Of a stretch of 61,931 nt of DNA, positions 2-41,252 are shown piece after piece. This DNA is from Candidatus Micrarchaeota archaeon (GTDB lineage: Archaea > Micrarchaeota > Micrarchaeia > Norongarragalinales > SBBD01). The notes beneath the pieces were generated by a model that was not told the DNA's origin, did not search any database, and saw only the letters and a list, made by a program, of their open reading frames with translations. Each line of letters begins with the position of its first letter. The stretch's first letter is position 1. Location of the stretch: assembly GCA_043803465.1 (NCBI GenBank), contig JAZDKC010000040.1, forward strand, positions 1 to 61,931, given 5' to 3'. Made by a program: the position numbers and the translations under genes.

Positions 2-250
2 CCAATAAACGAAGACAACGTGAAGAAGACCCTTAGTGCCGCGGGGATGCAGGCGGATGCCGCAAAGGTGAAGTCGCTCGTTTCCTCACTCGAGGGAGTG
101 GACATCGAGGATGCGATCAAGCAGGCCGCTGTTGTTGCCGCTCCTGCTGCCGCAAGTGGTGCCGCAAAGCCCGCTGAGAAGAAGGAGGAAGTGAACGAGG
201 AGAAGAGGGAGGAGGAGGCTGCTGCCGGATTGGCGAGCTTGTTCGGTTAA
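2..250 (+). CDS. rpl12: 50S ribosomal stalk protein P1/L12, C-terminal part (5' end upstream of window)
   Basis: The frame is open from base 2 (..INEDNVKKTLSAAGMQADAAKVKSLVSSLEGVDIEDAIKQA..). It has an Ala-rich hinge, an acidic stretch and the canonical archaeal stalk tail EEAAAGLASLFG, then TAA at 248-250. The listed ORF 20..250 is only the GTG-initiated part. Confidence 0.9.
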   Translation, partial: PINEDNVKKTLSAAGMQADAAKVKSLVSSLEGVDIEDAIKQAAVVAAPAAASGAAKPAEKKEEVNEEKREEEAAAGLASLFG

Positions 251-305
251 TTTTTTCCTCTTTTTTGTTTTATTTATTTTTTCTTAAAGCTAATTCTATT
301 TTTTT
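251..305 (+). terminator. T-rich tract downstream of rpl12 (archaeal oligo-T terminator candidate)
   Basis: Runs of T6, T6, T4 and T6 lie directly after the TAA. Archaeal RNA polymerase terminates at oligo-T. A near-identical tract is repeated at 521-570. Confidence 0.5.
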
Positions 306-324
306 CAATCACTAGAGTAACAAA

Positions 325-410
325 GGGGTAGAGGCGACATACCGAAGACATAGGTCTTCGTATGTTAGTAGAGCTGAGCTCTACGTAACACGAGTAGGGA
401 AATGTCGCTC
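325..410 (+). repeat. Composite/nested copy of the G-rich hairpin element family
   Basis: It starts with GGGGTAGAGGCGACA, identical to the 5' end of the 37128 copy. It contains hairpins CGAAGAC-ATAG-GTCTTCG and GTAGAGC-TGA-GCTCTAC, then ACACGAGTAGGGAAATGT, which matches the 37128 copy apart from one G. GGCGACAT (333-340) can pair with ATGTCGC (402-408). Confidence 0.6.
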
Positions 411-432
411 ATTAATTCGCAGAACAAATTAA

Positions 433-481
433 GGGAGGTAGGGGCGACACGCGTAGGAGGGATATCCCTCCTGAAGGTGTC
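433..481 (+). repeat. G-rich hairpin element, copy abutting the duplicated rpl12 3' end
   Basis: Sequence: GGGAGGTAGGGGC GACAC GCG TAGGAGGG ATAT CCCTCCTG AAG GTGTC. It has an outer stem GACAC/GTGTC, a 3x3 internal loop, an 8-bp inner stem and a 4-nt loop. Confidence 0.7.
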
Positions 482-570
482 GAGGAGGCCGCTGCTGGTT
501 TGGCGTCTTTGTTCGGCTGATTTTTCCTCTTTTTTTGTTTTATTTTCCTTAGTTCTAATTCTATTTTTTT
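482..570 (+). repeat. Second copy of the rpl12 3' end (12 codons + stop + T-rich tail), no start codon
   Basis: 482-520 encodes EEAAAGLASLFG-stop, identical in amino acids to 212-250. It has 8 nucleotide differences, all synonymous (including AGC vs TCT Ser and TAA vs TGA). 521-570 matches the T-rich tail 251-305 with a few indels. Confidence 0.85.
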
Positions 571-5960: not shown

Positions 5961-8900
5961 CTACTTCGTGATCTTCGACTTGGATAGCATGTCGTTCAGC
6001 GCCCAGTCGGGCTGCGCGTCGAGCTTCTCGCTGATCGAGTCGAGGTATTCTCCGGTTATGGATCCGGGGCAGTAGCCATTGACTTCGCACGCGTCCCGCA
6101 ATTGCTCGTACATGTTCCTTGCAGCCACAGCAGCATTCGGCTGCTGCACGGGCGTTTCATCAGATGGTGCTGCAGGCAGATCGGTTATCTTATCCACCAC
6201 TTGCGTAAACACTTGATCGGCTGAAATGTCCATCTTCGTCACCGGCGCCTCGATTGTCAGGAAGAGCGATTTGTAGAGTTTTTCGGGGTCGATTCCCTTG
6301 TTCACTCCTGTGATTAGCGTATAGCCCTGCTCTGTCGCGTATTGCCTGCCCTTGATCAGGTAAATGCAGATCGAGCTGTCAGCAGGATCGCACATTGCGC
6401 CCGAATCCAGCGCATTCAGGCAGCCTTCCTCCTCTCCCAGGTTCCTTGCGCAGATGCGCCTCATCGATGCCTTGTCCCATGAAAGCGCACTGCCTTCATC
6501 GACATTGTAGGAAACAAGGTGGTGCGGGAACCTATAATCCAGCGCGCCCTGCACAGGCCTCACATCAACGTGGAACAGCAATGGGATTAGAAGTGAAATT
6601 ATGTTTCGTGATTTCCTGAACCGCTCCAGCTCGCCGTATTCGCCGCCGAAGAATCTCCTGAGCCTGCCCTTCGCCGCCTGCTCCTGCCTCTTGACTTCGC
6701 CGACCAGTTTGTTTGCCTGCTCCGTAGTGAGGCCTAGTTTCGCATATGCACCCGCCGGATCCGTCAATGCCTCCACATTCAGTAGTGCCTTCGCCTTCGA
6801 GGATAAAACTGCCGGCGTCCCAACGCCCTTGAATCTCCTGCTGAGAGTGTCAATGGCTTTCTGGGTCAATTTTTCCTCTTCCGTGAAGAAATCATCCGCA
6901 TAGGAAATCAATGTTTGATCCACAGCGGAAATATCCTGCGCAATTTCACCATACCTAAATGCAGCTGCGCCGGTCAATTTGCTAGGAGGCCGTTTACCGG
7001 TCAATGCGGTATGCTCCTTCTTCAGCGCCTCCCTTTCGGATCTCAGGAGTTTCATTTCCTCCACTATATTGCCCCTCTTCTTGGCAGCATCGGCAAATCC
7101 CTTCGGGTCCATTTGCTCGTACGCTTTTGTGAGTTCGTTCTGTCTCATCATGAAAGCCTCTGGATTCTGTGTAAGATCCTTCTCGAATTGCGCCATCATT
7201 TCCGCTTTTGTGAGCCCCACCCTCTTTGCGTTTAATTGCTGGTCGTACCAATCCAGGTTTGTAGTGCCGGTAGCCGTATCAAAACCAAGCGTCTGCGCCG
7301 CAGCCAGAGTGCCGGCAACGGGCGAATTTGCCTCCATTATCCTGCCGGCCAAGGTGCTTGCATCCTTGATTCCCATCCCCGACCTCGTGAGATAGTCCAT
7401 CAGGTAGGCACGGCTTCCGAATGTCTTTGCGACCTTCAGGCCGCCGTACATAGCGGGTGTCGAAGTGTAGGTCGGCGTATCATCGCCGGTTACAAAATTA
7501 TAGCCGGCGGTCACGCCGTCGATTGCAGTTGTCAGGGCGACAAAACCCACCAATTCGAATAGGAATTTTCCCCCGAATGCGGCGCCGAATTTCAAGCCCT
7601 CGCCGCCGCCGGGAATTGCGGTAATCAATAATTCGGTCGCACCTGCAAAGCCGCCAGCCAAGCAATTGTTCGCAACTTCGCAAACCGGTGTTTTGGAGGT
7701 ATCTGCAGCCCTGAATGTAAGCCCTTGATAAATCGAGGCGCCGCATAAGGCGGCGGTTGTGGAAAGCCCATAAGCCGCTTTGATTGCCATTACTTCATTC
7801 CATACTGCGCTCGGCGCACCTACTCCGGTCAACGCCTTTCCGAAATTGGTCAGCAAACTCCCGCCCAGTGCGAGTGATGCAACGCCCATTGTCGCAACCA
7901 CGCCGCCGGTCATGTAGCCTGCGCAATACCATCCGGCCTCGTACGGTTCCGCCACGGCCATTGCTTCAGAACGGTCTATCTTGTAGAGCGTCCGGTAGAG
8001 GATATTCAGGTTCTGGATGTCCACCCTGTTGGCTGTACGCTTGTAGGGCCCGACAGTGAACAACTGCACCTTGTCAAGCAGGCCTATCAGCCCGCCGGCT
8101 TCGCTGCCGCTATCATCCCCGATGTTCCATCCGATTCCGGTTGACAGCTCGCGGCCCACAACTCCTTCCGTATTTCCGCGCTCCGCTACAAGCAGCGCCG
8201 CATTTGCAAGGGTGAAATTGCATTCCATGCCCGGCGTAAGCCTGAATTCAATGTTCGAATATTTCAGCCAATCGGCCTTCTTGGAGGGAGCTGTTGCAAA
8301 TTTGCAGATGTCGAGCCTTCCCTCCAGTATGTAAACGCCGCAGCCCTTCACATCAACAGTAGAGGTTGTGATCTTGAACCCGTCGTCGGATTGCTTCAAT
8401 ATGGAGTCGAATTCGGATTTAGAAAGCTCCAGCGACCGCTCCGAATCGAGCAGCGTTTCCGAATTTGCAGCCTGCAGGACGATTGATTTCTTGTAACCGC
8501 CATCGCTAAGGGTTTTCTCGCAGAATTTCGTGAGATCATTCGGGTATTCGGCATCCGACGCAAGCGTTTCAACAAGCGTCTTGAATTCTCCTGCAAATTC
8601 AGTGAATGCTGTTTCCACCTGTACAGAGGTGCAGAAATTGGTCTGGCATTTCATCACTGATGCATCCAAAGTTGTGAACACCTGGGGCTTGGGGCCAACA
8701 GAGGAGGGCGCATCATCCGCAAACGATTGCGCATTCACATCTGAATAAAAGCGGTCCACATAGCCGGACAAGGTCACCTCCGCCTCGGCTGTTGCCGCCT
8801 CCTGCGGTGCCAGGTCTCCGAGTGGTGAGGCGGAATACAATGCCTTGAAATCGGGTTCGGGCTCGAATACCTCGATGTTCACGTACCTTATATACTCGTT

Positions 8901-11900
8901 AATATCCCCGGCGGAATCGCTCGGAGTAATCTTCAGGCGGCCCTTGCCTTTCTTCTTTGAAACGCACTTGAGGACAGTCCCCTTGCCGGGTTCGAGCGTG
9001 CCTGTTGAAGGCGAGCAGCTTACCAATTGCGTGTCGCCGGTTACCGAGTAAGTGATTGCCTTGTCAAGATTGTTCACAGCCGCAATTGCACGCTCGTGAT
9101 TGATGCTCTTGAAGGAAAGCTTCATGAGCGCATTGTCGAACCTCACGTTCTGCTGGTCATCCGCATAATTGACATAGAAGCCGTTCATCATCTTCCGGAA
9201 TTGCTTGAACAGCGAGCCGCTGCATGTGCCCGTGCCCTTATCAAGCTTGATCTTTATGCCGATCTTCTCGGTCACCGCCTTCCCGTTGTATTCTCCAAAC
9301 AGGGTCACATATGTTTCGGAGTCGGGGTCGGTGACGCGGCCGTTCGCGCTTTCCAAAATGCAGCCGTCCTCATCCAGATATTGCGACGGCACGCCAATGT
9401 CGAGCCGGAAGGATTGGTATTTGCAGTTCTGCTTTGCAGGATCCACGGATTTGATGATCATCTTCGGATCCACTTGCCATGCGATTGGGCGGGTGACGCT
9501 CTTGAGCGCTCCATCCAGCTCCCCGCTAACTGACTCGCCGGTGTAGCCCACGTACCTCTTCTCGAGCGTCGTGCGGCTCATCAACGGATCGTCATCCAGC
9601 CTGAACTCCACCGCAAGGTTGGAAAAGCCCCAGTTCTGCACGCACACATACCTGGCCTGCGAGCCCTGTGCGTTCGTGTCGTCAAATTCCAAATCCAAAA
9701 GCTTGTCTGCGGTATCCGGCTTCCCGCCTTCAGGAGGCGCCTCGAATGCGACAAGAGGGCTGCTTGCATCCGCGATGAACGCGAATTTGTCCTTCTTCGC
9801 CTTGGTCTCGCAAAGTTCAAATGAAATCTTGTCTGCTTCCCTTACGACAATTTCCTGCGGCTTTTCGGGGTTGTTGGAAGTGCCCGGAAGCAGCCTCGCA
9901 TCCTCCTCGAACACTATTGATTTCACGGATGGAAGCTCATATTCGCGCGGCGCGTCTTCCCCGGCAATCTCGATCTTTATGTTCTTGCAGCCTCCCAGAT
10001 TCGCAATCTTTTGCTTATCATCGAATGTTTGGGCGGTTGAAGGCAGCGATACAGAAACCTCCTTCCCGAAAACCGCATGCAGCCAGTATTTGCCGTCATC
10101 ATCCTTCTTGATGGTTGCGACAATCGTCATGGTGCCCGGGATCGTCAATGTTTTCGGATCCGAGATGAAATCAGCGGAGGTGAAATCATATTGTTTCATC
10201 ATGAGCCTATTGCCCAGGAACGAGAACTCGTCCTTCTGCTCGTGATCCGCAAGCTTTATCTCAGCCGCTTCCGCAAACCGGAATGAATGATAAATCTCCT
10301 CTATTTTCTGCTTGTATGGCTCGAGCTTCGGCTGCAGGAATACGTCCCCGGGGATTTCAGCCATTACGGGGAATGAGAACCGCATCTCAAAATCGCGGCC
10401 TTCGGGAGTCGGGTCTATCTGCGTGAACGTGACGCCCTTCAATGAATCCAATTTCGCAAGGGCAATGTCATTGTAATTGTCGTTCCTCTGGAATGCGAGG
10501 CGCTCGACAGCGTATATCACCCTATAGCCCTCGTTTTCATTCCGTATTGAATTGGGGGGCGTGAGGAGCGCATTCGCGAGCGGGAAGTGGTAGGTCGTCT
10601 GTTCCGGGATCTTGATTGTGAACGATTCCGTCCCGTATTCGGATTTTTCAACCTTGATCATGCGGTTGCCAGCTCCAGGCGCGTTCGCGGAGAATGTGAT
10701 TTCAGTTCCTGCAGCGATCGTGACCTCCTTTGCCTCGAATGCCTTCTCATTCACTTCGACGTTCTCCATCAGCATCCTGTTGCCGTTCTCAAATTGTATC
10801 TGCGTCAGCGCGCCTTTCCTCTTCACTGCTGCCGAGGAGGGCAAATTGATTGTAATGCTTACGGGCAATTTCCTCGTGATCCCTACAACCCCGAAATCAG
10901 TAGGCTGGATGGTAATTGGCGCGGCCGGAAGCGCCTCTATCAATCTTGAGCCATCCGCATATTCGAGCCCGACCCTAGTGGTGCCCTGCGCAAAAAGCAG
11001 CTCATAAACTTCGGTTGAAATGGAGCGCGCCTGCGTTGCGCCGGCATCGAGCGCGAGCGCGATGCGGTCGCTCTTCGGAACCTTGAATTGCAGCTTGAAT
11101 GGCAATTGCAGGTGCAACTCGCCGTTCATCCCCTCCTGCGCATAAGGCGGCGGGATGCGGACAGCTGTTGCAGCCGGGATTGTAATTTTTCTTTGTTCAT
11201 TGAACAGGTCCCCGCTTCCACCGGTTGCAACGGGATCAGTTGAGGAGCGTGAATCCGGCGGCAATGTGATTGTCGTTCCCGAATCAAACTGAATGGCTCT
11301 GGAGCCGGTATAATCATCCGTCCTTATCCGGACCCTTTCTTGAATGACAAAAGTGGTGTCGACGGGGAAGTAGACTTCAATCGAGTCCTGGGAATTCGTG
11401 AAGGGGGTGAGCTGTATTCCGATGTAGGTGTTCGGCGGGATTGTCGCTCGCCTTTCATTGGAGCTTCTGCCCCGGACCAATGGAACCGAGGATGGGAAGT
11501 ACAAATCAAAATCCTCAATGCTTGCGATCTTCTGGCTGTCCTTCTGGGAGAATTCGGTTTCAGGCTCAAAATCAATGAAGGTGGTGAATGGGAACGCAAG
11601 CTTGTAGGAACTTGTTGATAATGACCGCGCATATGGGGACAAACCGGTGGTGCTAAAACCAGTGTAGCCAATCGGCTGGAGCATCGGTGTTTGCTGCACG
11701 TATTTTGGCGATGCCTCGATGAAAACGCCTGCTGGCACTATTATATAGCTCCCCCCTCCGGATGTGACCGCAGGGAATGCTGGCTGATTGGCGTATGACG
11801 AATATTGGTTCGCACTGCTTGTCAATTGCGCACCTGCCCCGAAAATGAACCGTTCCTTGGAGGGCAATTCTATCAGGATGGTGCCATCTGCATTGTACTT

Positions 11901-14900
11901 TGTTTTTGTGTTCGCGGGCAATTGTGCGGTTAGGGAAACCGGAAGGGTAACTTGCAGCGCATTTTCAATCGTGCAGGTTTCAGTCGAGGCGACTGCAACC
12001 TCCGTGGTTGCCGTTTTCTTCGAGTTGATCCCGTTGCTGGAGGCGTAGAAATCGATTTTTCCCTTGAACGTCTCTTCCTCGAATTTGCAGGATTCGGTTG
12101 ATGTCGCGCGGCCGTAAACAGTGAATTCAGCTGTCTCGCCGATATCCAAATTCTTTGAAAGCGGTTCGACGTAAACATTCGGCGAGGAGGATTGGTGGTT
12201 GACAAGGATCGGGTACGGCGCATTGTTGGCGATGATGATCGTCTGCGATTCCTGCTTGATTTTCGGCGGCGCTACTGAGAAACTAAGGGAATCCGGCGAT
12301 ATGCTCCAAAGCGCGTTCAGGTCGTCCTGCTTGAAATCGGTCGTGACGGTGAAGGGGATGTCCTCAGTCTGCTCGGATGCGCCGAGCTTTGCAACTATGC
12401 GAACCTTTCCGGTGATTTTCTCCTTCAATACCTGCGGCTTGTTCGAGACCTTGATGATCAGGTCCGAAATTTCGGCCTCGAGATTGTTGGTATCCCGCTC
12501 AAGCCCCTTGACAGTTGCACCGCCCTTCTCCAAGGTTACATCCGTGTATTTTCCGGTTGTGGAAGTCAGCGTATAGGTTACCTTCAGCTCGTTTGAGAGA
12601 AGATTTTCAACATTGAACGCCGAGACCTCGATTTGATCGGAAGAGGTGGAGATTGAAAGCGCCCGGGTATCGAGCTGGAAAAGCGTGGTCGCCTGCGTCT
12701 GTATTGTGCCCGCCTTCACCTTGAAGCCTTCTGCTGTTACACGGAAGGAAACAGAGCCTATCGAGGGCGGATTCACATTTTCAATCACATAGGTGATGGT
12801 GCCATCCTTTGCCTCCTGCAATTCCGCCTCGAGCACCGCGCCGCCAAGCGCATCTGCTCCGCTTCCAAGGGTCACGAAAGCGTTCTTCAACGGCAGGTTG
12901 AGCGAGTCCGTCACGGTGAACACAACACGGTTTTCCTTCAATGCCTTCAATATCTTCCCGCCGCCCTTCTCCACTATCACATTAAATGAGACCTTCAAAT
13001 CCGGCTTCTCCCCGACGATGCGGAGCGACAGCGGCTTTGTTATCGTGCTTTCCCCGCTTTTTACCGATAATTGCAAATCGATGTTGTTGACGAGCCTTCT
13101 GGCTTGGAGGGTGAATCCGCCCTCTGCATTGTCCGAGGATGTGGAGAGCGACAAAATCTGCCGGTTCTCGGTTGTTTTCAATACGGCCTTGGAGGCACCC
13201 GAAAGCCCTTCGGTGAGAGAGATAGTTTGGTCATCCAATGGCGCGGACAATTCAACTGTCGCCCCCTTTGGTGCAACGATCTTGAAGTTCAATTTGAATG
13301 TTTCGGAAATCGGCGCCTCAAAATTATCCTCAGCCGTGCCTGAGCTTCCCTCGAAATTGCTCTGCAGGCAGATCCCGTTGTCGCATTTGCCCTCGAAGGA
13401 TATTGTGAGCGATTGGGCCTGCATATTTGCAAGGAACGCGCCACGGGGCGCGGAATTGTCGATCGGGTCCCGCAGGACCTCCTTGTCAGTAAAGAACGCC
13501 GACCTGTATTGCAGTTCCACCTTCCCATTCGAAACGGCGCGCGTCCTGAATTGGACGCTCACCTCCTTGCTGCCTTCAAAGGGCTGGAAATCAAAATGGG
13601 CATATTTGTAAGCGTCAGAATCCACGTCCGCGAGGTTGAGCGATGCGGCTGCCGAAGGCGTTTCCGTGCCCTCGATATTCGGCTGCAGGGTCGCAATTGC
13701 CGACGCATCCGTTGAAGTGCCCTTCGTGACAACGGCACCGACCGCATCATAACCGATTATCTCCGCTTGCTCGTTCTCCAAGGCCACACCGGCATTTCCA
13801 ATCCTAACCTGCACCTCAACCCGCGTTATTTTAACTTTCGGCCGGTTGATTACAAACCTTGCGTTATAAGTCGTCGAGGGTGAAAGCGTATTTACCTGCT
13901 CGCCTTTCAAGTTGAAAACCCCGGAATATGCGATCTTCGTTTTCTGCGCGATTTCCGAGAGCATGATCCCGAAGCTGACCTTGTTGTCGATGTTGGGCTT
14001 CACCTCGAATTCGCTCGAGGTAAAAAGGTCGTATTTGTTCGCGCTTACTATTGCGACATAGAAGCCTTCCTGCAATTGCGCGGTGCACCTGCCGGCCTTG
14101 GTTGTGCAGCTTGCAATGGGGGAGAACTCCACATCCGAAGGCGAGAACTCCACCTTCGCATTGTCCACATTCTTGCCTGTGAAGTGGTCCTTCACCAAAA
14201 CGACTGCTCGGCCTTTCGCGGGCTTCAACGCGACTTTCAATAAATTGATTCCCGTTTCCTCGCCGGTGCCGGCAAGTGAGAGCTCAACAATGCTGCTCAT
14301 GCCGTTCCTTCCGTTGAAGGATGCCTTCGCATAAATTTTCACAAGCGGCAATTCTTCATAGCTGGCAATGCCATCATTGCCGGCGATCTTGTCAATTGAC
14401 CCGACAGGGGTTCCATCCTCATAGAAAAGCGAAACTGCTGATTGCGGAACCGCATCCCCGTTCTGGTTCTCCACCTGCACCTTCAATTTTGCGGAGTTGG
14501 CGGTGCTTGCGGATTCCATGTAAACGGTGTAGCTGTTGCCTTTTTCCGCATTCTGGAGGGTTGCAGGCAGGAAGCCGGGCTTTACAACAGTTATATAATA
14601 CTGGCCGCTTCCGACATCGTTGAAAAGCGCAACGCCGTCCATCGGATTGCTCTCCCCTACCTTCGTGAATTTTTCATCGTATAGCTTTGCTACCGGATTG
14701 ACAATTTGCGAATCGCCCATGTCGAGCACAATCACCTTGATCGCCTTGAGCTCCGCTTCCGGGATTTTGTCAAGCGCCAAAAGGAAGTTTGTCTCGTCCT
14801 CGATTGTTTTCTCAGCGGATTTGACCACATATCCCTGAAGGCGTGCAACTGCCTTCACAATTTTCCCTATCGCCAGTTCCTGCGGGCTGATCTCCCCGTT

Positions 14901-15776
14901 CTCCCCGGTTTTCAGATTGGTGAATATTTTCGTGTTGGTTACCGAATCGATAATATCGACGGAAACATCCTTCAATGCCCTTGCAGTCGCAGCATCCGTG
15001 ACATGCACGCGCACTTTTCCATTTATGATCTTGTCCCTTGGCCTTAATGTAATTGAGATGCTCTCGTCGTTCTCCTTCAAATAAATGGTCCGGTTTTCCT
15101 TGTTGTATCCTTGCGCCTCCACTTTCACAAAAAATTCCGTATTCACGGCAAGATCGGAGTATGAGACGGCAAGCCCGGGTTTTGGCGAGCCCGGAACTGA
15201 AAGCCTGTCAGGACCCTCGAACAAATAAATTTGCGCGCTTTCCCCGCTTCCCAGTCCTTTCAAATTGACCGTCAGGCTCACCTTGGGCTCGATTAACGGA
15301 GCGGAAAGGGCGAGGATGAAGGTGGATTTGGTCGGTGTGACTGCAATGCGGTCACTTTCAAAGTTCAATGACTCTCCCTGGAAATCCGAAGCCGCTACAA
15401 GGAATGCGGTTCCTATTTTGATCTTTTCAAAAGTGACTTTTCCATCCTCGTCGGTAGTCGCTTTTTCCGGCGAGGGCACGTCATTGCTTTCGGGGGTCAG
15501 CATTACCTCGGTGTTCGCAAGCGGCCTTCCGGCCGAATCCTTTAATGTGAGCAGGATCGAGGTTTCCTTCGGCGCGAAAATGCTCACCTGGCCGCCTCCG
15601 AGCGTGAGGTAGAGCGTGCCGCCAACTAGGAGCAATAGCAAAACCAAAAAGAAGGGCATCGCGGGGATCCCTTTTTCCTCGAGCGAATCCGAGATGCCGC
15701 GCAGAGGCAGGCCTTTCTCATCAGACCATTCCAGCAGGGATTCCCACTTCTCCTGAAGGCTTTCCGCTATTCCCAT
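5961..15776 (-). CDS. Giant (3271 aa) membrane-anchored surface protein
   Basis: The ORF is uninterrupted. It has a short N-terminal cytoplasmic segment, a TM helix (MPFFLVLLLLLVGGTLYLTL), many beta-sandwich-like repeats of the carboxypeptidase-regulatory/Cna-B style (e.g. LTLKDSAGRPLANTEVML...DEDGKVTFEKIKIG), a Gly/Ala-rich hydrophobic cluster near nt ~7480-7960, and a ~500-aa C-terminal region with coiled-coil-like segments. Confidence 0.9.
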   Translation of the reverse strand: MGIAESLQEKWESLLEWSDEKGLPLRGISDSLEEKGIPAMPFFLVLLLLLVGGTLYLTLGGGQVSIFAPKETSILLTLKDSAGRPLANTEVMLTPESNDVPSPEKATTDEDGKVTFEKIKIGTAFLVAASDFQGESLNFESDRIAVTPTKSTFILALSAPLIEPKVSLTVNLKGLGSGESAQIYLFEGPDRLSVPGSPKPGLAVSYSDLAVNTEFFVKVEAQGYNKENRTIYLKENDESISITLRPRDKIINGKVRVHVTDAATARALKDVSVDIIDSVTNTKIFTNLKTGENGEISPQELAIGKIVKAVARLQGYVVKSAEKTIEDETNFLLALDKIPEAELKAIKVIVLDMGDSQIVNPVAKLYDEKFTKVGESNPMDGVALFNDVGSGQYYITVVKPGFLPATLQNAEKGNSYTVYMESASTANSAKLKVQVENQNGDAVPQSAVSLFYEDGTPVGSIDKIAGNDGIASYEELPLVKIYAKASFNGRNGMSSIVELSLAGTGEETGINLLKVALKPAKGRAVVLVKDHFTGKNVDNAKVEFSPSDVEFSPIASCTTKAGRCTAQLQEGFYVAIVSANKYDLFTSSEFEVKPNIDNKVSFGIMLSEIAQKTKIAYSGVFNLKGEQVNTLSPSTTYNARFVINRPKVKITRVEVQVRIGNAGVALENEQAEIIGYDAVGAVVTKGTSTDASAIATLQPNIEGTETPSAAASLNLADVDSDAYKYAHFDFQPFEGSKEVSVQFRTRAVSNGKVELQYRSAFFTDKEVLRDPIDNSAPRGAFLANMQAQSLTISFEGKCDNGICLQSNFEGSSGTAEDNFEAPISETFKLNFKIVAPKGATVELSAPLDDQTISLTEGLSGASKAVLKTTENRQILSLSTSSDNAEGGFTLQARRLVNNIDLQLSVKSGESTITKPLSLRIVGEKPDLKVSFNVIVEKGGGKILKALKENRVVFTVTDSLNLPLKNAFVTLGSGADALGGAVLEAELQEAKDGTITYVIENVNPPSIGSVSFRVTAEGFKVKAGTIQTQATTLFQLDTRALSISTSSDQIEVSAFNVENLLSNELKVTYTLTSTTGKYTDVTLEKGGATVKGLERDTNNLEAEISDLIIKVSNKPQVLKEKITGKVRIVAKLGASEQTEDIPFTVTTDFKQDDLNALWSISPDSLSFSVAPPKIKQESQTIIIANNAPYPILVNHQSSSPNVYVEPLSKNLDIGETAEFTVYGRATSTESCKFEEETFKGKIDFYASSNGINSKKTATTEVAVASTETCTIENALQVTLPVSLTAQLPANTKTKYNADGTILIELPSKERFIFGAGAQLTSSANQYSSYANQPAFPAVTSGGGSYIIVPAGVFIEASPKYVQQTPMLQPIGYTGFSTTGLSPYARSLSTSSYKLAFPFTTFIDFEPETEFSQKDSQKIASIEDFDLYFPSSVPLVRGRSSNERRATIPPNTYIGIQLTPFTNSQDSIEVYFPVDTTFVIQERVRIRTDDYTGSRAIQFDSGTTITLPPDSRSSTDPVATGGSGDLFNEQRKITIPAATAVRIPPPYAQEGMNGELHLQLPFKLQFKVPKSDRIALALDAGATQARSISTEVYELLFAQGTTRVGLEYADGSRLIEALPAAPITIQPTDFGVVGITRKLPVSITINLPSSAAVKRKGALTQIQFENGNRMLMENVEVNEKAFEAKEVTIAAGTEITFSANAPGAGNRMIKVEKSEYGTESFTIKIPEQTTYHFPLANALLTPPNSIRNENEGYRVIYAVERLAFQRNDNYNDIALAKLDSLKGVTFTQIDPTPEGRDFEMRFSFPVMAEIPGDVFLQPKLEPYKQKIEEIYHSFRFAEAAEIKLADHEQKDEFSFLGNRLMMKQYDFTSADFISDPKTLTIPGTMTIVATIKKDDDGKYWLHAVFGKEVSVSLPSTAQTFDDKQKIANLGGCKNIKIEIAGEDAPREYELPSVKSIVFEEDARLLPGTSNNPEKPQEIVVREADKISFELCETKAKKDKFAFIADASSPLVAFEAPPEGGKPDTADKLLDLEFDDTNAQGSQARYVCVQNWGFSNLAVEFRLDDDPLMSRTTLEKRYVGYTGESVSGELDGALKSVTRPIAWQVDPKMIIKSVDPAKQNCKYQSFRLDIGVPSQYLDEDGCILESANGRVTDPDSETYVTLFGEYNGKAVTEKIGIKIKLDKGTGTCSGSLFKQFRKMMNGFYVNYADDQQNVRFDNALMKLSFKSINHERAIAAVNNLDKAITYSVTGDTQLVSCSPSTGTLEPGKGTVLKCVSKKKGKGRLKITPSDSAGDINEYIRYVNIEVFEPEPDFKALYSASPLGDLAPQEAATAEAEVTLSGYVDRFYSDVNAQSFADDAPSSVGPKPQVFTTLDASVMKCQTNFCTSVQVETAFTEFAGEFKTLVETLASDAEYPNDLTKFCEKTLSDGGYKKSIVLQAANSETLLDSERSLELSKSEFDSILKQSDDGFKITTSTVDVKGCGVYILEGRLDICKFATAPSKKADWLKYSNIEFRLTPGMECNFTLANAALLVAERGNTEGVVGRELSTGIGWNIGDDSGSEAGGLIGLLDKVQLFTVGPYKRTANRVDIQNLNILYRTLYKIDRSEAMAVAEPYEAGWYCAGYMTGGVVATMGVASLALGGSLLTNFGKALTGVGAPSAVWNEVMAIKAAYGLSTTAALCGASIYQGLTFRAADTSKTPVCEVANNCLAGGFAGATELLITAIPGGGEGLKFGAAFGGKFLFELVGFVALTTAIDGVTAGYNFVTGDDTPTYTSTPAMYGGLKVAKTFGSRAYLMDYLTRSGMGIKDASTLAGRIMEANSPVAGTLAAAQTLGFDTATGTTNLDWYDQQLNAKRVGLTKAEMMAQFEKDLTQNPEAFMMRQNELTKAYEQMDPKGFADAAKKRGNIVEEMKLLRSEREALKKEHTALTGKRPPSKLTGAAAFRYGEIAQDISAVDQTLISYADDFFTEEEKLTQKAIDTLSRRFKGVGTPAVLSSKAKALLNVEALTDPAGAYAKLGLTTEQANKLVGEVKRQEQAAKGRLRRFFGGEYGELERFRKSRNIISLLIPLLFHVDVRPVQGALDYRFPHHLVSYNVDEGSALSWDKASMRRICARNLGEEEGCLNALDSGAMCDPADSSICIYLIKGRQYATEQGYTLITGVNKGIDPEKLYKSLFLTIEAPVTKMDISADQVFTQVVDKITDLPAAPSDETPVQQPNAAVAARNMYEQLRDACEVNGYCPGSITGEYLDSISEKLDAQPDWALNDMLSKSKITK

Positions 15777-16842: not shown

Positions 16843-16908
16843 TTAACCCATCCTCCTTGGCAACGGGTAAATGGCCCCGCACTTCTTGCACACTTTCTCC
16901 TTGTGCTT
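16843..16908 (-). repeat. Second copy of the last 21 codons + stop of the zinc-ribbon gene
   Basis: The minus strand encodes KHKEKVCKKCGAIYPLPRRMG-TAA, identical in amino acids to 16960-17025. The 6 nucleotide differences are all synonymous (GGA/GGG, ATA/ATT, TAT/TAC, CTT/TTG, AGA/AGG). Confidence 0.9.
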
Positions 16909-16959
16909 GACACCCACAGGGAAACTACGTTTCCCTCCACGTGTCGCCGCCACCCTTCC
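16909..16959 (-). repeat. G-rich hairpin element (51 nt) between the two copies of the gene end
   Basis: The minus strand reads GGAAGGGTGGCGGC GACAC GTGG AGGGAAAC GTA GTTTCCCT GTGG GTGTC. The architecture matches 433-481 and 37128-37175. It is 17 sense codons long, in frame with the gene, with no stop. Confidence 0.75.
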
Positions 16960-17304
16960 TTAACCCATCCTTCTTGGAAGCGGATATATGGCTCCGCACT
17001 TCTTGCACACTTTCTCCTTGTGCTTCCAGTTGAGGTCGAAATCAATCCCGCCGCAGTCCGCGCAGCCGCGCACCTCCGCCTTATGAAAGTCGCGCCAGCC
17101 CTCCTTGCCATCCCTTCCCACAAACGATGTGTGCGAATACGCGACCTTCTCGTGCTGGTGGGTTGTTGTAGCTAGCTTGGTGTCGAACTTCTTCCTTTCG
17201 GACGCATGCCGGATCTTCTTGCTCGAGCAGCGGGGGCAGATCTGCGGGTCGTCGGATTCAAATAGCAATTTGCAATTGTCGCATTCGTATTTCATGGGAA
17301 TCAA
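16960..17304 (-). CDS. Small double zinc-ribbon protein
   Basis: 114 aa with CDNC-x10-CPRC and CADC-x14-CKKC. Its start overlaps the stop of the upstream epimerase gene (ATGA-type overlap, 17301-17304). Confidence 0.7.
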   Translation of the reverse strand: MIPMKYECDNCKLLFESDDPQICPRCSSKKIRHASERKKFDTKLATTTHQHEKVAYSHTSFVGRDGKEGWRDFHKAEVRGCADCGGIDFDLNWKHKEKVCKKCGAIYPLPRRMG

Positions 17305-35891: not shown

Positions 35892-36977
35892 TTAGATGTA
35901 GTTTACGTTCTCCAACCCCATCGCATCCGCAACTGCCTGCTTCTTCTTCTCCTCATGCCTTAGCACATTGGGTGAAGTGACGCCGGTCACAACTGCGGTC
36001 ACGATGATCTTGTCTCCAAGCTCCGGTGAAATCCTTGCACCCCATTTGACGTACGCCTTCGAGTCAAATGCAGCAGTGATTCCCTCCCCGATCTTCACAG
36101 CCTCTCCCAATGTCAATTGGGGCCCGCCGTTGATCAGGATGAGTGCGCCCTTCGAGCCCGCATAATCAACATCCAAAAGGGGATGCTCCAAAGTGCTTTG
36201 GATCACATTCTTCACGCGGTCCGTTCCGCTTGCCTCTCCAATTGAGATCATTGCAGTGCCTGCATTGCCCATGATCATCCTAAGGTCGGCAAAGTCGATG
36301 TTCATCAGCGATGGCAGCATCACGGTGTCCGCTATGCCTTTCACGGCTTTCGCGACCAGAGTGTCCGCAACTGCGAATGCCTGGTTCATCGGAAGGTTCG
36401 GGACGAATTGCACGAGCTTGTTGTTGTCGATTATGACAACAGTGTCGCAAGTTTCCTGCAATGCATTCAATCCCCAGTCCGCTTTCTCAAGCCTTGCCCT
36501 TTCCAGTGCGAAGGGGAAGGTGACCATTCCGACAGTGATTGCGCCCTGCTGCTTTGCTATCTGAGCAACGATCGGGGCCGCTCCGGTTCCAGTGCCGCCG
36601 CCCATACCTGCGGTGATGAAGACTAATTCAGAATCCTTCAGCACTTCACTTAGCTTATCCCTTGCGCTCTCAGCTGCTTTCGCCCCTACTTCAGGGAATC
36701 CGCCCGCTCCAAGGCCCTTGGTCATGGATGCGCCGATTAAAAGCTTCCTGTTCGCTTCCACCAATCTCAAGTGGTTCGCATCAGTGTTGATGGCGATTGT
36801 ATCCGCGCTCGTGATGCCCATTTTGGTGAGCCTCGATACGCAGTTCGTGCCTGCTCCTCCGACTCCGACGACTGTTATCTTCAGTTTCGCGGGAGTGAAG
36901 GACTTCCCTGCTTCTTCAGGGAGCTTGTCGTGCGCACTGTACTTCAGTGCATCTGCAATTAAACTATCCATACACAT
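35892..36977 (-). CDS. ftsZ: Cell-division GTPase FtsZ (paralog 1)
   Basis: It has the tubulin signature GGGTGTGAAPIVAQIAK, GVGGAGTN and NTDANHL. GGAGGAG precedes the second ATG (36971), which may be the real start. Confidence 0.95.
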   Translation of the reverse strand: MCMDSLIADALKYSAHDKLPEEAGKSFTPAKLKITVVGVGGAGTNCVSRLTKMGITSADTIAINTDANHLRLVEANRKLLIGASMTKGLGAGGFPEVGAKAAESARDKLSEVLKDSELVFITAGMGGGTGTGAAPIVAQIAKQQGAITVGMVTFPFALERARLEKADWGLNALQETCDTVVIIDNNKLVQFVPNLPMNQAFAVADTLVAKAVKGIADTVMLPSLMNIDFADLRMIMGNAGTAMISIGEASGTDRVKNVIQSTLEHPLLDVDYAGSKGALILINGGPQLTLGEAVKIGEGITAAFDSKAYVKWGARISPELGDKIIVTAVVTGVTSPNVLRHEEKKKQAVADAMGLENVNYI

Positions 36978-37127
36978 CTCCTCCGGTGGGTTTACCGTTT
37001 ATCCAATGGTTTTTTTGCAAGCGTGCGTAATTTTGCCTGCGCGCCTCGAACGAGGGAAAAACATGATGTGAAATCGCAGCTAATCAACTGCGCATATTTC
37101 CAAGGTGGGATTTAATCCCCAAATAAT

Positions 37128-37175
37128 GGGGTAGAGGCGACACGAGTAGGGGAAATGTGTTCCCCTGGAGGTGTC
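37128..37175 (+). repeat. G-rich hairpin element, copy between the two ftsZ genes
   Basis: Sequence: GGGGTAGAGGC GACAC GAG TAGGGGAA ATGTG TTCCCCTG GAG GTGTC. Its 3' end overlaps the stop codon of ftsZ paralog 2 on the opposite strand. A GGGATT-T-AATCCC palindrome lies 10 nt upstream (37107-37119). Confidence 0.7.
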
Positions 37176-38241
37176 AGCCAATGATCTCGATGTCGTACCC
37201 AAGCTCTCTTTCTGCTTCCTTCTTCTTGGTTACATCCCTGCCAACTATGTTGGCCGAGGTGACACCGGTAACTATTGCAACGATCTCCAGCTTTCCATCG
37301 AAGTCAGGTAGCAGCCTTGCTCCCCACTTGACAGAAGCCTTCGCATCCATTGTCTCCGTGATCCTCTCTCCTGCCCGGATCGCATCCCCCAAAGTAAGGT
37401 CCGCGCCTCCGGCAATGTGGATCAGTGCGCCTTTTGCGCCTGCAAAATCCACATCAAGCAGGCGGTTCTTCATGACGCCCTCAACTGCATCATCCACCTT
37501 GTTTGGACCCTTTCCGCTTCCCACTGCAATCATTCCAACGTCCCCTTGCCCCATGATCGACCTGACATCAGCAAAATCTATGTTGACCAGGGATGGTTGG
37601 GTAATTGTGAAAACTAAACCTCCTATTGCCTTTGCAAGAATCTCATCCGCAACAAGGAACGCCTGGTTCATCGGCAGGTTCGGCACGATCTGCACGAGCC
37701 TGTTGTTGTCGAGAATGATGACTGAATCGGCGGTGTTTCTCAGGCGGTTGATTCCGTCCTCCGCCTTCGTGACCCTTGCGCGCTCTAGTGCGAAGGGGTA
37801 TGTTACCATCGCAACCACAATTGCGCCCATTTCCTTTGCGACCTCTGCAATGATCGGCGCAGCGCCAGTCCCAGTGCCTCCGCCCATGCCTGCGCAGATG
37901 AAAACCAGATGGGAACCGGAAAGCGCCCTTCGGATCTCCTCGCGGTCCATTTCAGCGCACTTCGCGCCTACTTCCGGGTATCCGCCTGCACCCAGCCCTT
38001 TTGTGATCGACTTACCAATCAGGAATTTCTTGACCCCTTCTTCAACGATATTCAAATGCTGCCTATCCGTGTTGCATGCAATCAATTCCGCGCCCTTCAC
38101 TCCAAGCCTCTTCAACCTGTTGACAGTGTTGTTCCCGCCGCCTCCGACTCCGATTACGGATATGCGGATGTGCTCGAATTCCTCACTTCTAACTCCAGTT
38201 GCACTAGAGCCACTTAAAGCGGATTTAATGATGCTCTCCAT
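37174..38241 (-). CDS. ftsZ: Cell-division GTPase FtsZ (paralog 2)
   Basis: It has the tubulin signature GGGTGTGAAPIIAEVAK, GVGGGGNN and NTDRQHL. 355 aa. Confidence 0.95.
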   Translation of the reverse strand: MESIIKSALSGSSATGVRSEEFEHIRISVIGVGGGGNNTVNRLKRLGVKGAELIACNTDRQHLNIVEEGVKKFLIGKSITKGLGAGGYPEVGAKCAEMDREEIRRALSGSHLVFICAGMGGGTGTGAAPIIAEVAKEMGAIVVAMVTYPFALERARVTKAEDGINRLRNTADSVIILDNNRLVQIVPNLPMNQAFLVADEILAKAIGGLVFTITQPSLVNIDFADVRSIMGQGDVGMIAVGSGKGPNKVDDAVEGVMKNRLLDVDFAGAKGALIHIAGGADLTLGDAIRAGERITETMDAKASVKWGARLLPDFDGKLEIVAIVTGVTSANIVGRDVTKKKEAERELGYDIEIIG

Positions 38242-38795: not shown

Positions 38796-41252
38796 ATGGT
38801 TTTTATGCCTGAAAAGAAGCGCGCATTCCTTTTGGACGTCGGCTACTTGATGAAGAACAACACGTCGCTTCTGCGATTGTTGCTGAAGGATCCGCAAACA
38901 AAAAGGACCTATCGCGTTTATGACGGGGAATTCGAGCCGTACCTGTACCTGAGGCCAAAGGAGGGGGAAATTGATAAGATTCAAGAAGACCTGATGCGCA
39001 TCCGCGTATTCGACCACGGAAAGGAAGTGAAAATAAAAAAGGTCGGGAAAGTGACTCGCTCCTTGAGGCATGAGGAATACGATTTCTTGAAAATAACCTG
39101 CCTCCACCCATCCGATGTCACAAAAATTCGGGATGAGGCGAAAAAATTCGGCGAAACGTTCGAGCACGGGATCTCCTTCACGAAAAGGTACCTGATCGAC
39201 AAGGGATTGATTCCGATGAGGGAAGTCGAATTCCACGAGGGGGATGGGAGGAAAATCAGCGGCATCGCCCCCATTGAGGATGCACAACTATCGGAGGTTC
39301 CGATGAAATTAATGGCGCTCGATATTGAAACGTACAATCCGAAGGGCATTCCAAATCCGCTCTCCGACCCCGCAATACTGATCGGGTGGGCGGATGGGGA
39401 GGAGAAAGGCATTTTCACATTCCAGAAAAAAGTGAGGGATGAGAACGCCCACGTTTCTGCGACTGAAAAGGAGATGCTCGAGGCGTTTGGGGATTTCCTG
39501 AAAAGGAAAAAAGTCGATTTGCTCGCGACCTATAACGGGGATCAGTTCGATTTGCCGTATTTGCGGGACCGCGCAAAAGTTTTGAAAGCCGGAATGCACC
39601 TTGGAAGGGATAGGGCGCCACCGAAGAGCAAATCCCTGGGCCTTAGGATCCAGACATCGCTAAATGGCCGCATTCATTTCGATGTTTTCCCAATTGTTTC
39701 CTTCCTGAACACGATCGGCGCATACAAGCTTGCGCGCCTCACCCTTGAAAATGTATATTTTGAAATCCTCGGAGGGAAGAAACTCGATGTCAAGAAGGAA
39801 AACATCTGGAGGGATTGGGATTCGAACGATCCTGCGAAATTGAAATACCTCGCGGAATATTGCGAGAATGATGCGGTCGCGGCGTACAGGCTTGCAATGC
39901 ACGTGATGCCGCTTGAAATCGAGCTTTGCAGGCTGACCGGCACATCGATTTTCGATGCGACCAGGAGCACTTCGGGCCAGCTGATTGAAATGCTCCTGAT
40001 GAGGGAGGCGTTCAAGGCGCATGAGATCATACCGAATAAGCCAAAGTACGAGGAAGTCCAGAAAAGGCTGGCAAATCCGGTCGAGGGCGCGTTCGTCAAA
40101 TTGCCTTCCCCGGGCGGTTATGAGAATATTGCAGTGCTTGATTTCAGGAGCCTGTACCCTTCAATAATCATTTCGCATAACATCGATCCTTCGACTTTGA
40201 ATTGCAAGTGCTGCTCCAGGGAGGAGTCATATGTTTCGCCGCAGGGCCATCGGTTTTGCAAAAAAAGGAAGGGTTTGATTCCGAGAGTTTTGCAATTCGT
40301 GCTCAATTCCAGGTATGAAATCAATGGAAAAATGAAGGAATTGAAAAAGGACGGGAAGGAGGAGGGATTCGGGTACAAGGAGATGGATGCAAGGCAATGG
40401 GCGTTGAAGATCATGGCGAATTCGATGTATGGCTATTTGCTTTATGCGCGCTCCCGCTATTATTCCAGGGAAGCGGGCGAATCGGTCACCGCATATGCGC
40501 GCGAATACATCCAAAAAACCATGGAGAAGGCGAAGGAATTCGGGATGGATGTGCTTTACGGCGACACGGACAGCATTTTCTTGCTTTACGGCAAAAAGGA
40601 GGATGAGCATAAGGTGACGGAATTCCAGCACAGGATAAATTCGGAACTGCCGGAGGGACTGGAGCTCGAGCTTGAGGATATCTATCCCCGCGGGATTTTC
40701 GTGAGCAAGAAGCAGGAGGAGAAGGGCGCGAAGAAAAAATACGCGCTGATCAACCGCGCGGGCAAAATTAAAATACGGGGATTCGAGCTTGTGAGGAGGG
40801 ACTGGAGCAAGGTTGCGAAGGACACGCAGCGCAAGGTGCTTGAAATCATCCTGAAAGAGGGGGATGTCACCAAGGCAATCGTGCTTGTTCGTGAAGTGAT
40901 TGAAAACCTAAAGTCCGGAAACACGCCGCTCGAGGAGCTTTCAATAATGACCCAGCTGAAAAAGCAGGCCGGAAGCTATGATATCATCTCCCCGGAGGTT
41001 TCCGCGGTGCAAAAGGCGAAAAAAGCCGGAGTGGTGCTCGATGACATGCCGATGATCAGCTATGTGATAACGAAAATGGGAAAAACCATTTCCGAGAAGG
41101 CCACAATCGTGGAAATGGCCAAGGATTACGATCCGGATTATTACATCAACAACCAGGTGCTTCCCGCAGTGCTCAAAATACTTTCCGCTTTCGGCTTCGA
41201 TGCGGAAAGCCTGAAGATGAAGGGGCAGCAGAAGAGCCTGGGCGACTGGTGA
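38796..41252 (+). CDS. polB: Family-B DNA polymerase with all catalytic motifs intact
   Basis: Motifs present: ExoI LDIETYN, ExoII YNGDQFDLPYL, ExoIII EYCENDA, motif A DFRSLYPSII, motif B KIMANSMYGY, motif C YGDTDS, KKKYA. 818 aa, no intein. Confidence 0.95.
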   Translation: MVFMPEKKRAFLLDVGYLMKNNTSLLRLLLKDPQTKRTYRVYDGEFEPYLYLRPKEGEIDKIQEDLMRIRVFDHGKEVKIKKVGKVTRSLRHEEYDFLKITCLHPSDVTKIRDEAKKFGETFEHGISFTKRYLIDKGLIPMREVEFHEGDGRKISGIAPIEDAQLSEVPMKLMALDIETYNPKGIPNPLSDPAILIGWADGEEKGIFTFQKKVRDENAHVSATEKEMLEAFGDFLKRKKVDLLATYNGDQFDLPYLRDRAKVLKAGMHLGRDRAPPKSKSLGLRIQTSLNGRIHFDVFPIVSFLNTIGAYKLARLTLENVYFEILGGKKLDVKKENIWRDWDSNDPAKLKYLAEYCENDAVAAYRLAMHVMPLEIELCRLTGTSIFDATRSTSGQLIEMLLMREAFKAHEIIPNKPKYEEVQKRLANPVEGAFVKLPSPGGYENIAVLDFRSLYPSIIISHNIDPSTLNCKCCSREESYVSPQGHRFCKKRKGLIPRVLQFVLNSRYEINGKMKELKKDGKEEGFGYKEMDARQWALKIMANSMYGYLLYARSRYYSREAGESVTAYAREYIQKTMEKAKEFGMDVLYGDTDSIFLLYGKKEDEHKVTEFQHRINSELPEGLELELEDIYPRGIFVSKKQEEKGAKKKYALINRAGKIKIRGFELVRRDWSKVAKDTQRKVLEIILKEGDVTKAIVLVREVIENLKSGNTPLEELSIMTQLKKQAGSYDIISPEVSAVQKAKKAGVVLDDMPMISYVITKMGKTISEKATIVEMAKDYDPDYYINNQVLPAVLKILSAFGFDAESLKMKGQQKSLGDW

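Follow-up and report, generated by a model that had tools for sequence, protein, structure and literature searches.

A small repeat element of Micrarchaeota lies between duplicated gene ends that differ almost only at silent sites

The duplicated end of rpl12

The window studied here is the entire 61,931-nt contig JAZDKC010000040.1 of a Candidatus Micrarchaeota archaeon, and it begins inside rpl12, the gene of the ribosomal stalk protein P1. The 3′ end of this gene is present twice, and two members of one family of small hairpin elements, designated A and B, separate the two copies. The left copy is the end of the working gene, and the right copy is referred to below as the ghost copy. The gene was assigned from its translation and from homologues with PF00428. 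These homologues are named 50S ribosomal protein P1 of Candidatus Micrarchaeota, and the rpl12 loci nearest to that of the window all belong to Micrarchaeota metagenome-assembled genomes. The features of the locus are as follows.

2..250 (+): 3′ part of rpl12 (P1), cut by the contig start; stop codon TAA at 248-250
212..305 (+): working (left) copy, the last 12 P1 codons, TAA and a T-rich tail (251-305)
306..410 (+): element A, long form, of the same long-form type as the element at locus L201; covariance model match at 301-366
411..481 (+): element B, complete short form; match to covariance model R1 at 411-481 (68.2 bits, E = 4.9e-22)
482..570 (+): ghost (right) copy, 12 codons, TGA (518-520) and a T-rich tail (521-570), without a start codon

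The coding part of the working copy (212-250) reads GAGGAGGCTGCTGCCGGATTGGCGAGCTTGTTCGGTTAA and that of the ghost copy (482-520) reads GAGGAGGCCGCTGCTGGTTTGGCGTCTTTGTTCGGCTGA; each translates to EEAAAGLASLFG followed by a stop. They differ at 8 of 39 nt and every difference is silent, including a switch between the serine codons AGC and TCT and the exchange of TAA for TGA. The direct repeat extends past the stop codons through the T-rich tails (212-305 and 482-570), and no exact match between the copies is longer than about 16 nt. A degenerate pattern of the tail matches two sites in the window, which are these two copies, and shuffled sequences are expected to give none. An earlier sequence-only reading of this DNA had described the repeat with its silent differences, and direct inspection confirmed it. 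The same reading had stated that the non-coding tails resemble each other more than the coding parts do. This holds at comparable sites: the tails (about 55 nt) show about 7 substitution or indel events, or about 13% difference, a similarity inflated by T-rich low complexity, and the coding parts show 8 differences at about 13 silent sites, or about 60%. The repeat is a mosaic in which the tails are closer than the silent coding sites.

The insert between the copies (306-481) comprises 176 nt of noncoding DNA with no open reading frame (ORF) of note. The ghost copy begins directly after GGTGTC (476-481), the 3′ end of element B; the sequence-only reading had rightly placed it against the end of a hairpin, but what it took for one kind of hairpin is two elements, A and B. 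Two further observations of that reading were correct. Upstream of the ghost copy no in-frame ATG, GTG or TTG occurs as far back as the in-frame stop at 413-415, and the two rpl12 stops are 270 nt apart with stop codons intervening.

Hairpin elements and a second duplication in the window

Element B consists of an A-rich 5′ extension, ATTAATTCGCAGAACAAATTAAGGGA (411-436), followed by GGTAGGGGCGAC (437-448) and, at its 3′ end, GGTGTC. It is predicted to fold into an outer stem (GACAC/GTGTC), a 3 × 3 internal loop and an inner hairpin (GGAGGG-ATAT-CCCTCC), with a predicted folding energy of -28.2 kcal/mol (z = -4.2). The internal loop, in which GAG lies opposite GAG, was compared by eye with known motifs; it did not match the K-turn, the hammerhead core, the bulge-helix-bulge splice motif or a fold like that of hepatitis delta virus. 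Element A is composed of a variable 5′ extension (306-326), the core GGTAGAGGCGAC (327-338), two extra hairpins (340-390) and CGAGTAGGG (391-399). It is truncated at its 3′ side and stops after AAATGT (position 405), that is, after CGAGTAGGGAAATGT, and the filler CGCTC follows.

The two extra hairpins of long forms occupy one fixed position, between GGCGAC and ACGAGTA. They belong to at least two unrelated sequence types, one beginning ATACCGAAGAC (element A and L201) and one beginning CGTGAAGC (L035, L005, L167, L177, L187 and L189), and are either a variable expansion or a nested insertion. At L208 (999-1178) a long-form fragment is followed by a 5′ core that ends after GGCGAC and then by a full element, a nested or tandem order that the A and B arrangement of the window matches. 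New copies of the element seem to land at or in old copies and to remove the 3′ part of the old copy.

Two more elements lie inside the contig, one of which has a duplicated gene end of its own.

16843..16908 (-): ghost (right) copy of the zinc-ribbon gene end, the same 21 codons by amino acid and TAA, directly after element D
16909..16959 (-): element D, diverged short form (GGAAG, GGTGGCGGCGACAC ... GGTGTC); covariance model match at 16909-16980 (39.1 bits, E = 1.6e-11)
16960..17025 (-): left copy, the last 21 codons and TAA of the gene of a 114-aa zinc-ribbon protein (16960..17304)
37104..37175 (+): element C, short form, opposite in orientation to ftsZ-2 (37174..38241, -); covariance model match of 75.4 bits; no flanking duplication

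Element D was discovered by the covariance model. The zinc-ribbon copies lie 117 nt apart (a multiple of 3) and differ at 6 of 66 nt with no amino-acid change; the first 32 bases of the ghost copy next to the element are identical to the gene tail. Orthologues of the zinc-ribbon gene at L215 and L216 have empty sites, and the orthologue at L217 carries the same element subtype as the window (GTGGCGGCGAC) but no duplication. Element C sits between two ftsZ paralogues (35892..36977 and 37174..38241, both -), and the stop codon TGA of ftsZ-2 is partly built from the terminal GTGTC of the element plus an A, so that the element 3′ end and the stop overlap.

Recurrence at rpl12 in relatives

The arrangement recurs at rpl12 in relatives of the window genome. 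At L045 and L046, from two different NCBI assemblies, the stop codon and T-rich tail are followed by the element, 8 nt of filler (GATGGGGA in L045), a second tail copy with its stop, and a T-rich tail. In L035 (a Logan assembly) the order is stop, 5 nt, a long-form element, the filler GAGC, a second tail copy and a T-rich tail; here the copies show 2 differences, both silent. The left boundary of the duplication, GAGGAGGC, is common to the window, L045 and L035, and the stops lie 142 nt apart in L045 and 139 nt apart in L035, neither a multiple of 3. In L005 an inverted element follows the rpl12 stop codon directly, with no duplication. Comparison with relatives, which had been proposed as a search for an empty site, did find such sites: a plain stop followed by a T-rich tail is present at L003, L001/L214, L036-L044, L212 and L213. 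The tail-element-tail layout is also found at about 11 other metagenomic loci, and filler bases occur at the junction of L191 as well (AATTG).

Structure, position and spread of the element family

The family was collected with one two-motif scan of metagenomes, which gave 46 loci with about 25 true elements, mostly on Hainich groundwater contigs. With the remaining loci included, the collected copies comprise 18 short forms and 8 long forms. A covariance model recovers them at 59-81 bits and detects further diverged copies. The conserved core consists of GGTAGAGGCGAC, an optional pair of variable hairpins, CGAGTAGGGG, a loop, CCCC, three variable bases and GGTGTC; near-invariant motifs are GGTAGAGGCGAC, CGAGTAGG and GGTGTC. 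The inner helix is 97% paired, 4 of its pairs are changed on both sides, and the observed covariation score was reached by none of 500 shuffles. The outer stem is invariant in the family and so gives no covariation evidence for or against pairing. The 3′ end, GGTGTC, is exact, and the base after every canonical end is a purine; the 5′ end is ragged, with an extension that varies in length and sequence around the consensus AATTCGCAGAAGTAAATAAAGG. The hairpins are one conserved and undescribed family of small repeat elements of Micrarchaeota (DPANN archaea).

Elements lie at the 3′ ends of protein and tRNA genes in either orientation, with the element end within about 9 nt of the stop codon. Those opposite in orientation to the gene typically have their 3′ end within a few nt of the stop (element C, L005, L178, L198 and L202), and at L206 an element lies 2 nt from a tRNA-Leu gene. 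In elements of the same orientation as the gene, the 5′ side follows the stop or terminator, and a second gene tail is attached to the 3′ end, with 0-8 nt of filler between them. Whether a repeat is present is predicted by how the element is oriented relative to the gene. Among 28 motif-matched loci, which represent about 24 true, non-redundant element copies, 13 are flanked by a direct repeat that exceeds the shuffle maximum and whose right copy begins 1-9 nt past the element; element D and the second element in L194 are additional cases. The repeats are 20-94 nt long, and many elements have no duplication at all. They are identical at L170, L172, L173 and L206, near-identical at L035 and L187, and diverged at the rpl12 locus of the window, element D, L045, L182, L167, L199 and L193. 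Near-identical elements are found beside at least 13 unrelated flanking gene tails.

Of 9 clear cases, 7 have a ghost copy that starts on a codon boundary of its gene, with about 3 expected. This bias could result from the preference for a purine after GGTGTC, or it could point to ribosome-phased mRNA fragments. Genes next to elements end unusually often in glycine plus stop (GGN-TAR), as seen for P1 (245-250), the zinc-ribbon gene (16960-16965) and ftsZ-2 (37174-37179) in the window and for L170, L187 and the second element of L194. Such ends resemble the element's own 5′ GGGGTAG, and in L187 the last codon and stop come from that motif. The likeness may reflect the use of a short homology at the 5′ junction.

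Searches for a known relative or a helper gene were negative. Rfam 15 gave no match in the window at gathering score, and an E-value search over 150-700 returned chance-level matches only. No tRNA or tmRNA gene was found in the window. Pfam searches of 30 window ORFs returned housekeeping genes and no integrase, transposase or reverse transcriptase. All-against-all BLASTP of the ORFs within 3 kb of every element revealed no recurring protein except the synteny of the rpl operon, and no nuclease, TnpB, Cas or recombinase gene was seen near any element copy, among neighbouring ORFs or the 30 window ORFs. Two specific element patterns had no match in IMG/VR contigs, where a 14-mer alone gave chance matches only. 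A literature search on Micrarchaeota and miniature inverted-repeat transposable elements (MITEs) yielded nothing relevant, and an exact-sequence look-up of two window proteins gave no match. The hairpins represent a small non-coding repeat element, probably mobile, of Micrarchaeota and other DPANN-type groundwater archaea.

Silent divergence and the history of the copies

To compare the copies across the family, differences at seven loci were pooled and counted with path averaging. This gave 37 synonymous and 8 non-synonymous differences, with proportions of 0.60 at synonymous sites (pS) and 0.034 at non-synonymous sites (pN) and a pN/pS of 0.056. Most of the non-synonymous count is due to switches between codon families, such as AGC/TCT, and only two codons differ in amino acid. 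A model with one constrained and one neutral copy expects 66% of differences to be non-synonymous; the observed 8 of 45 has a probability of 4e-11 under it. A fresh target duplication whose ghost copy then decayed is therefore rejected as a full explanation. The sequence-only reading had argued from rpl12 that a fresh, then neutrally decaying copy cannot give a silent-only pattern, and the seven loci support this.

The comparison of the window with L045 gives further information on the history of rpl12. Over the 39 coding bases the two working copies differ at 13 positions, the two ghost copies at 5 (all silent), and every other pairing at 8. The DNA beyond the ghost copies is unalignable, and the stems of the two elements differ by compensatory changes. 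The L045 ghost copy has the tail type of the window (TTGGCG...TTGTTCGG), and the L045 working copy has the tail type of other relatives (CTTGCA...TATTTGG). These data fit copies that descend from different functional alleles joined by exchange between lineages, and a ghost copy kept by selection fits almost as well.

The tail of protein P0 (L10) was also considered as a donor for gene conversion and was rejected, as no P1-like tail is present on P0 in L045, L035 or L003. Archaeal P0 usually shares the ...AAGLxxLFG tail with P1. In these relatives P0 ends without it (L045 1240-1290, L035 9880-9925, L003 2860-2903); the rpl10 of the window genome lies off the contig. P1 may be the sole carrier of the GTPase-recruiting tail in this lineage.

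A proposed mobile element with exchange of gene tails

The explanation we prefer, with moderate confidence, is a non-autonomous mobile element that duplicates or carries a gene tail, with the two tails stemming from different functional alleles after exchange between lineages. Integration of the element would duplicate the gene tail as a long target duplication of variable length; alternatively, a tail copy carried by the element would recombine with the chromosomal tail. The tail-element-tail unit, or the adjoining gene, would then be swapped between diverged lineages by recombination through the conserved coding tail, so that the working and ghost copies would stem from two distinct functional alleles. 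The element would be moved by an enzyme acting in trans. A two-allele origin gives silent-only differences without any translation of the ghost copy, as for icd and icdC around prophage e14 of E. coli. The e14 element is flanked by icd and an icdC fragment, and its excision alters icd mainly at synonymous sites (PMC13626634). Identical tails at L170, L172, L173 and L206 show that the copy can come from, or equal, the local gene.

The sequence-only reading had proposed a small integrative or mobile unit that brings its own replacement gene end. The association of the duplication with a small repeated element, the empty sites and an e14/icd-like silent-only pattern all speak for a mobile unit of this kind. 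The integrative part fares less well, given a noncoding insert of 176 nt, the lack of an integrase among the 30 ORFs, and at least 13 unrelated gene tails instead of one attachment site.

Several points weigh against exchange of tails by a mobile element. No mobilising enzyme, no excised form and no occupied/empty polymorphism within one population was seen, so that copy number and the empty sites of related species are the basis for mobility. Tails that are 77-90% identical over 36-94 nt would recombine inefficiently. Near-identical elements stand at unrelated targets (L035 and L167), which argues against element lineages that have long carried their own gene tail. The two T-rich tails of the window are closer to each other than either is to its L045 counterpart, so that an additional gene conversion is needed. 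Finally, if the window and L045 share an orthologous insertion, the rate of change of the ghost copy has been far below that of a neutral sequence; this slow change, together with the compensatory stem changes, favours a selected function.

Comparison with known systems

None of the known families compared here fits the Micrarchaeota element in full. Close parallels to the layout are e14 and phage 21 in icd of E. coli, with the icdC fragment, and elements that integrate in tRNA genes, since all have a repeat of the gene 3′ end flanking the insert. They also share the mostly silent differences between the working and displaced ends, empty sites in relatives and the use of tRNA 3′ ends. However, the Micrarchaeota insert is 50-180 nt long and gene-less, with no integrase or recombinase gene inside; it is found at many unrelated targets and not at one dedicated attachment site; and its repeats of 20-94 nt are often missing, their presence being tied to element orientation.

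MITEs and other DNA transposons are likewise multicopy, with noncoding copies in the case of MITEs and empty sites in relatives. In contrast to them, the 5′ extension and the 3′ end of the Micrarchaeota element are not inverted repeats, and its duplications range from 0 to 94 nt where a fixed short length is expected. Retroposons like short interspersed nuclear elements (SINEs), which insert by target-primed reverse transcription, share an exact 3′ end, a variable 5′ end, variable duplications, filler bases and a noncoding nature. The element ends in GGTGTC without an A-rich 3′ tail, however, no reverse transcriptase domain was found among the 30 window ORFs, and a fresh target duplication cannot explain silent-only divergence. 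We know of no SINE-like non-autonomous retroposons in archaea.

The repetitive extragenic palindromic (REP) sequences of REP/RAYT systems and the palindromic elements derived from IS200/IS605 (PATEs) share with the element an extragenic hairpin after GTAG (here CGAGTAG and a covarying hairpin) and a location at gene 3′ ends in both orientations. In addition, the terminal GTGTC of the element pairs with a GACAC inside it, some 10 nt past the foot of the hairpin, in a manner reminiscent of guide and cleavage site at IS608 ends. REP/RAYT and IS200/IS605-derived elements make no target duplication, whereas the Micrarchaeota element has long duplications at at least 13 loci, and no Y1 (HUH) transposase was present among the 30 window ORFs. 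REP/RAYT systems have been described in bacteria.

Diversity-generating retroelements, which are common in DPANN archaea, also have a noncoding copy of a gene 3′ end close downstream, beside a structured region. They were rejected, as the mismatches are not adenine-specific (T/C, C/T, A/T, AGC/TCT, T/C and A/G) and are silent, and the 30 window ORFs include no reverse transcriptase. The layout of a scaffold with a matching segment is like that of the omega-RNA of TnpB and IscB, of CRISPR RNA and of the homing spacers of CRISPR-associated transposons; no effector gene was seen near any copy, among neighbouring ORFs or the 30 window ORFs.

Alternative explanations

The strongest alternative, which we consider possible but on the unlikely side, is that the element and tail copy form a functional unit kept by selection, either a scaffold with a guide or homing segment or a small regulatory or antisense RNA. 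Where the target tolerates change, at its wobble positions, the copy would tolerate it too, so silent-only differences would arise without translation. Window and L045 agree with this in that their ghost copies differ at 5 of 39 positions, all silent, against 13 of 39 in the working copies, in spite of unalignable DNA beyond; the compensatory stem changes between their elements also agree. So do the junction between element and copy, exact in every case, the left boundary shared at rpl12 by the window, L045 and L035, and the presence of one element subtype at the same zinc-ribbon gene in the window and L217. Against it, many copies lack a duplication, no nuclease, TnpB, Cas or recombinase lies near any copy, and a copy read together with the element has the same sense as the mRNA. 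Identity is also not concentrated beside the element, given 32 identical bases first at element D but a mismatch at base 3 in L182.

A more specific and more doubtful proposal is a programmable module guided by nucleic acid, in which a conserved scaffold with a precisely joined copy of a conserved gene end would steer the element, or an enzyme acting in trans, to that gene end in new genomes. In a related variant the copies would be derived from RNA: element RNA would be joined by ligation to the 3′ fragment of an mRNA or tRNA, and the product would re-enter the genome as a copy at the position where the transcript ends. Such an origin would fit codon-phased starts, filler bases and the use of tRNA ends.

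The locus might instead be a remnant of a classical element of the integrase type (virus or plasmid), with the tails as attL and attR and the interior deleted to about 50-180 nt. The direct repeat of a gene 3′ end around an insert, the use of tRNA 3′ ends (L206) and the mostly silent differences, as in e14/icd, are what such a remnant offers. We judge it improbable, as the same hairpin, present between at least 13 repeats that are unrelated, would not be left by random deletion, and a single integrase family would not have that many attachment sites; moreover, the 30 window ORFs include no integrase and the element patterns have no match in IMG/VR contigs.

It is still less probable that the ghost copy is translated, through a mini-ORF, ribosomal bypass or read-through, and is thereby under coding selection. 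An in-frame ATG (MGKEEAAAGLASLFG) and GGTG do precede the copy in L045, the element 3′ end is often GGAGGTG and thus Shine-Dalgarno-like, copies begin at a codon boundary in 7 of 9 clear cases, and the 270-nt spacing of the rpl12 stops and the 117-nt spacing of the element D copies are both multiples of 3. But no start codon precedes the window copy as far upstream as the in-frame stop at 413-415, the frame of the copy relative to the GTG of the element varies (+1 at 5 loci, +2 at 4), the spacings in L045 (142 nt) and L035 (139 nt) are not multiples of 3, stop codons lie between the copies, and the purine preference at the junction can account for the codon-boundary bias. With start codons and frame inconsistent, translation of the ghost copy was rejected; the sequence-only reading had raised coding selection on both copies as an alternative.

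An assembly artefact, in which two strain variants were mis-joined near the contig end, would suit a locus less than 600 nt from the start of a contig that breaks within rpl12, but it is scarcely credible: the layout recurs in three other, independent assemblies and 17 kb inside this contig at the zinc-ribbon gene, an element and not a gene body precedes the second copy and makes it a fragment in any genome, and the longest exact match of the copies (about 16 nt) is shorter than usual assembly k-mers.

Other features of the window

A giant ORF of 3271 aa (5961-15776, -) keeps its position in relatives, where it encodes 3220-3243 aa, with faint matches to Big_1 and CarboxypepD_reg in L045, L215 and L217. 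It is probably a surface protein. Two genes of family-B DNA polymerases, at 38796-41252 (+) and 56304-58586 (-), lie within 20 kb, and the second has no exonuclease domain recognisable by Pfam.

Significance

The DPANN archaea have tiny genomes and little-known mobile DNA, to which a compact and probably mobile element family is added here. The element repeatedly uses the ends of essential genes (those of P1, FtsZ, a chaperonin-like protein and tRNA-Leu) without breaking them, and the tail copies left behind keep their coding sense. For genome annotation, it matters that short duplicated gene ends of this type can pass for pseudogenes or for errors of assembly, and that variant calls at rpl12 can be misled by them. 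Should the copies derive from other lineages, they are a record of allele exchange between diverged Micrarchaeota. If they are selected, they would represent a guide-like or regulatory use of gene-tail copies that is so far unknown, and if the guided module or the RNA-derived variant is true, a new way of targeting gene ends in DPANN archaea.

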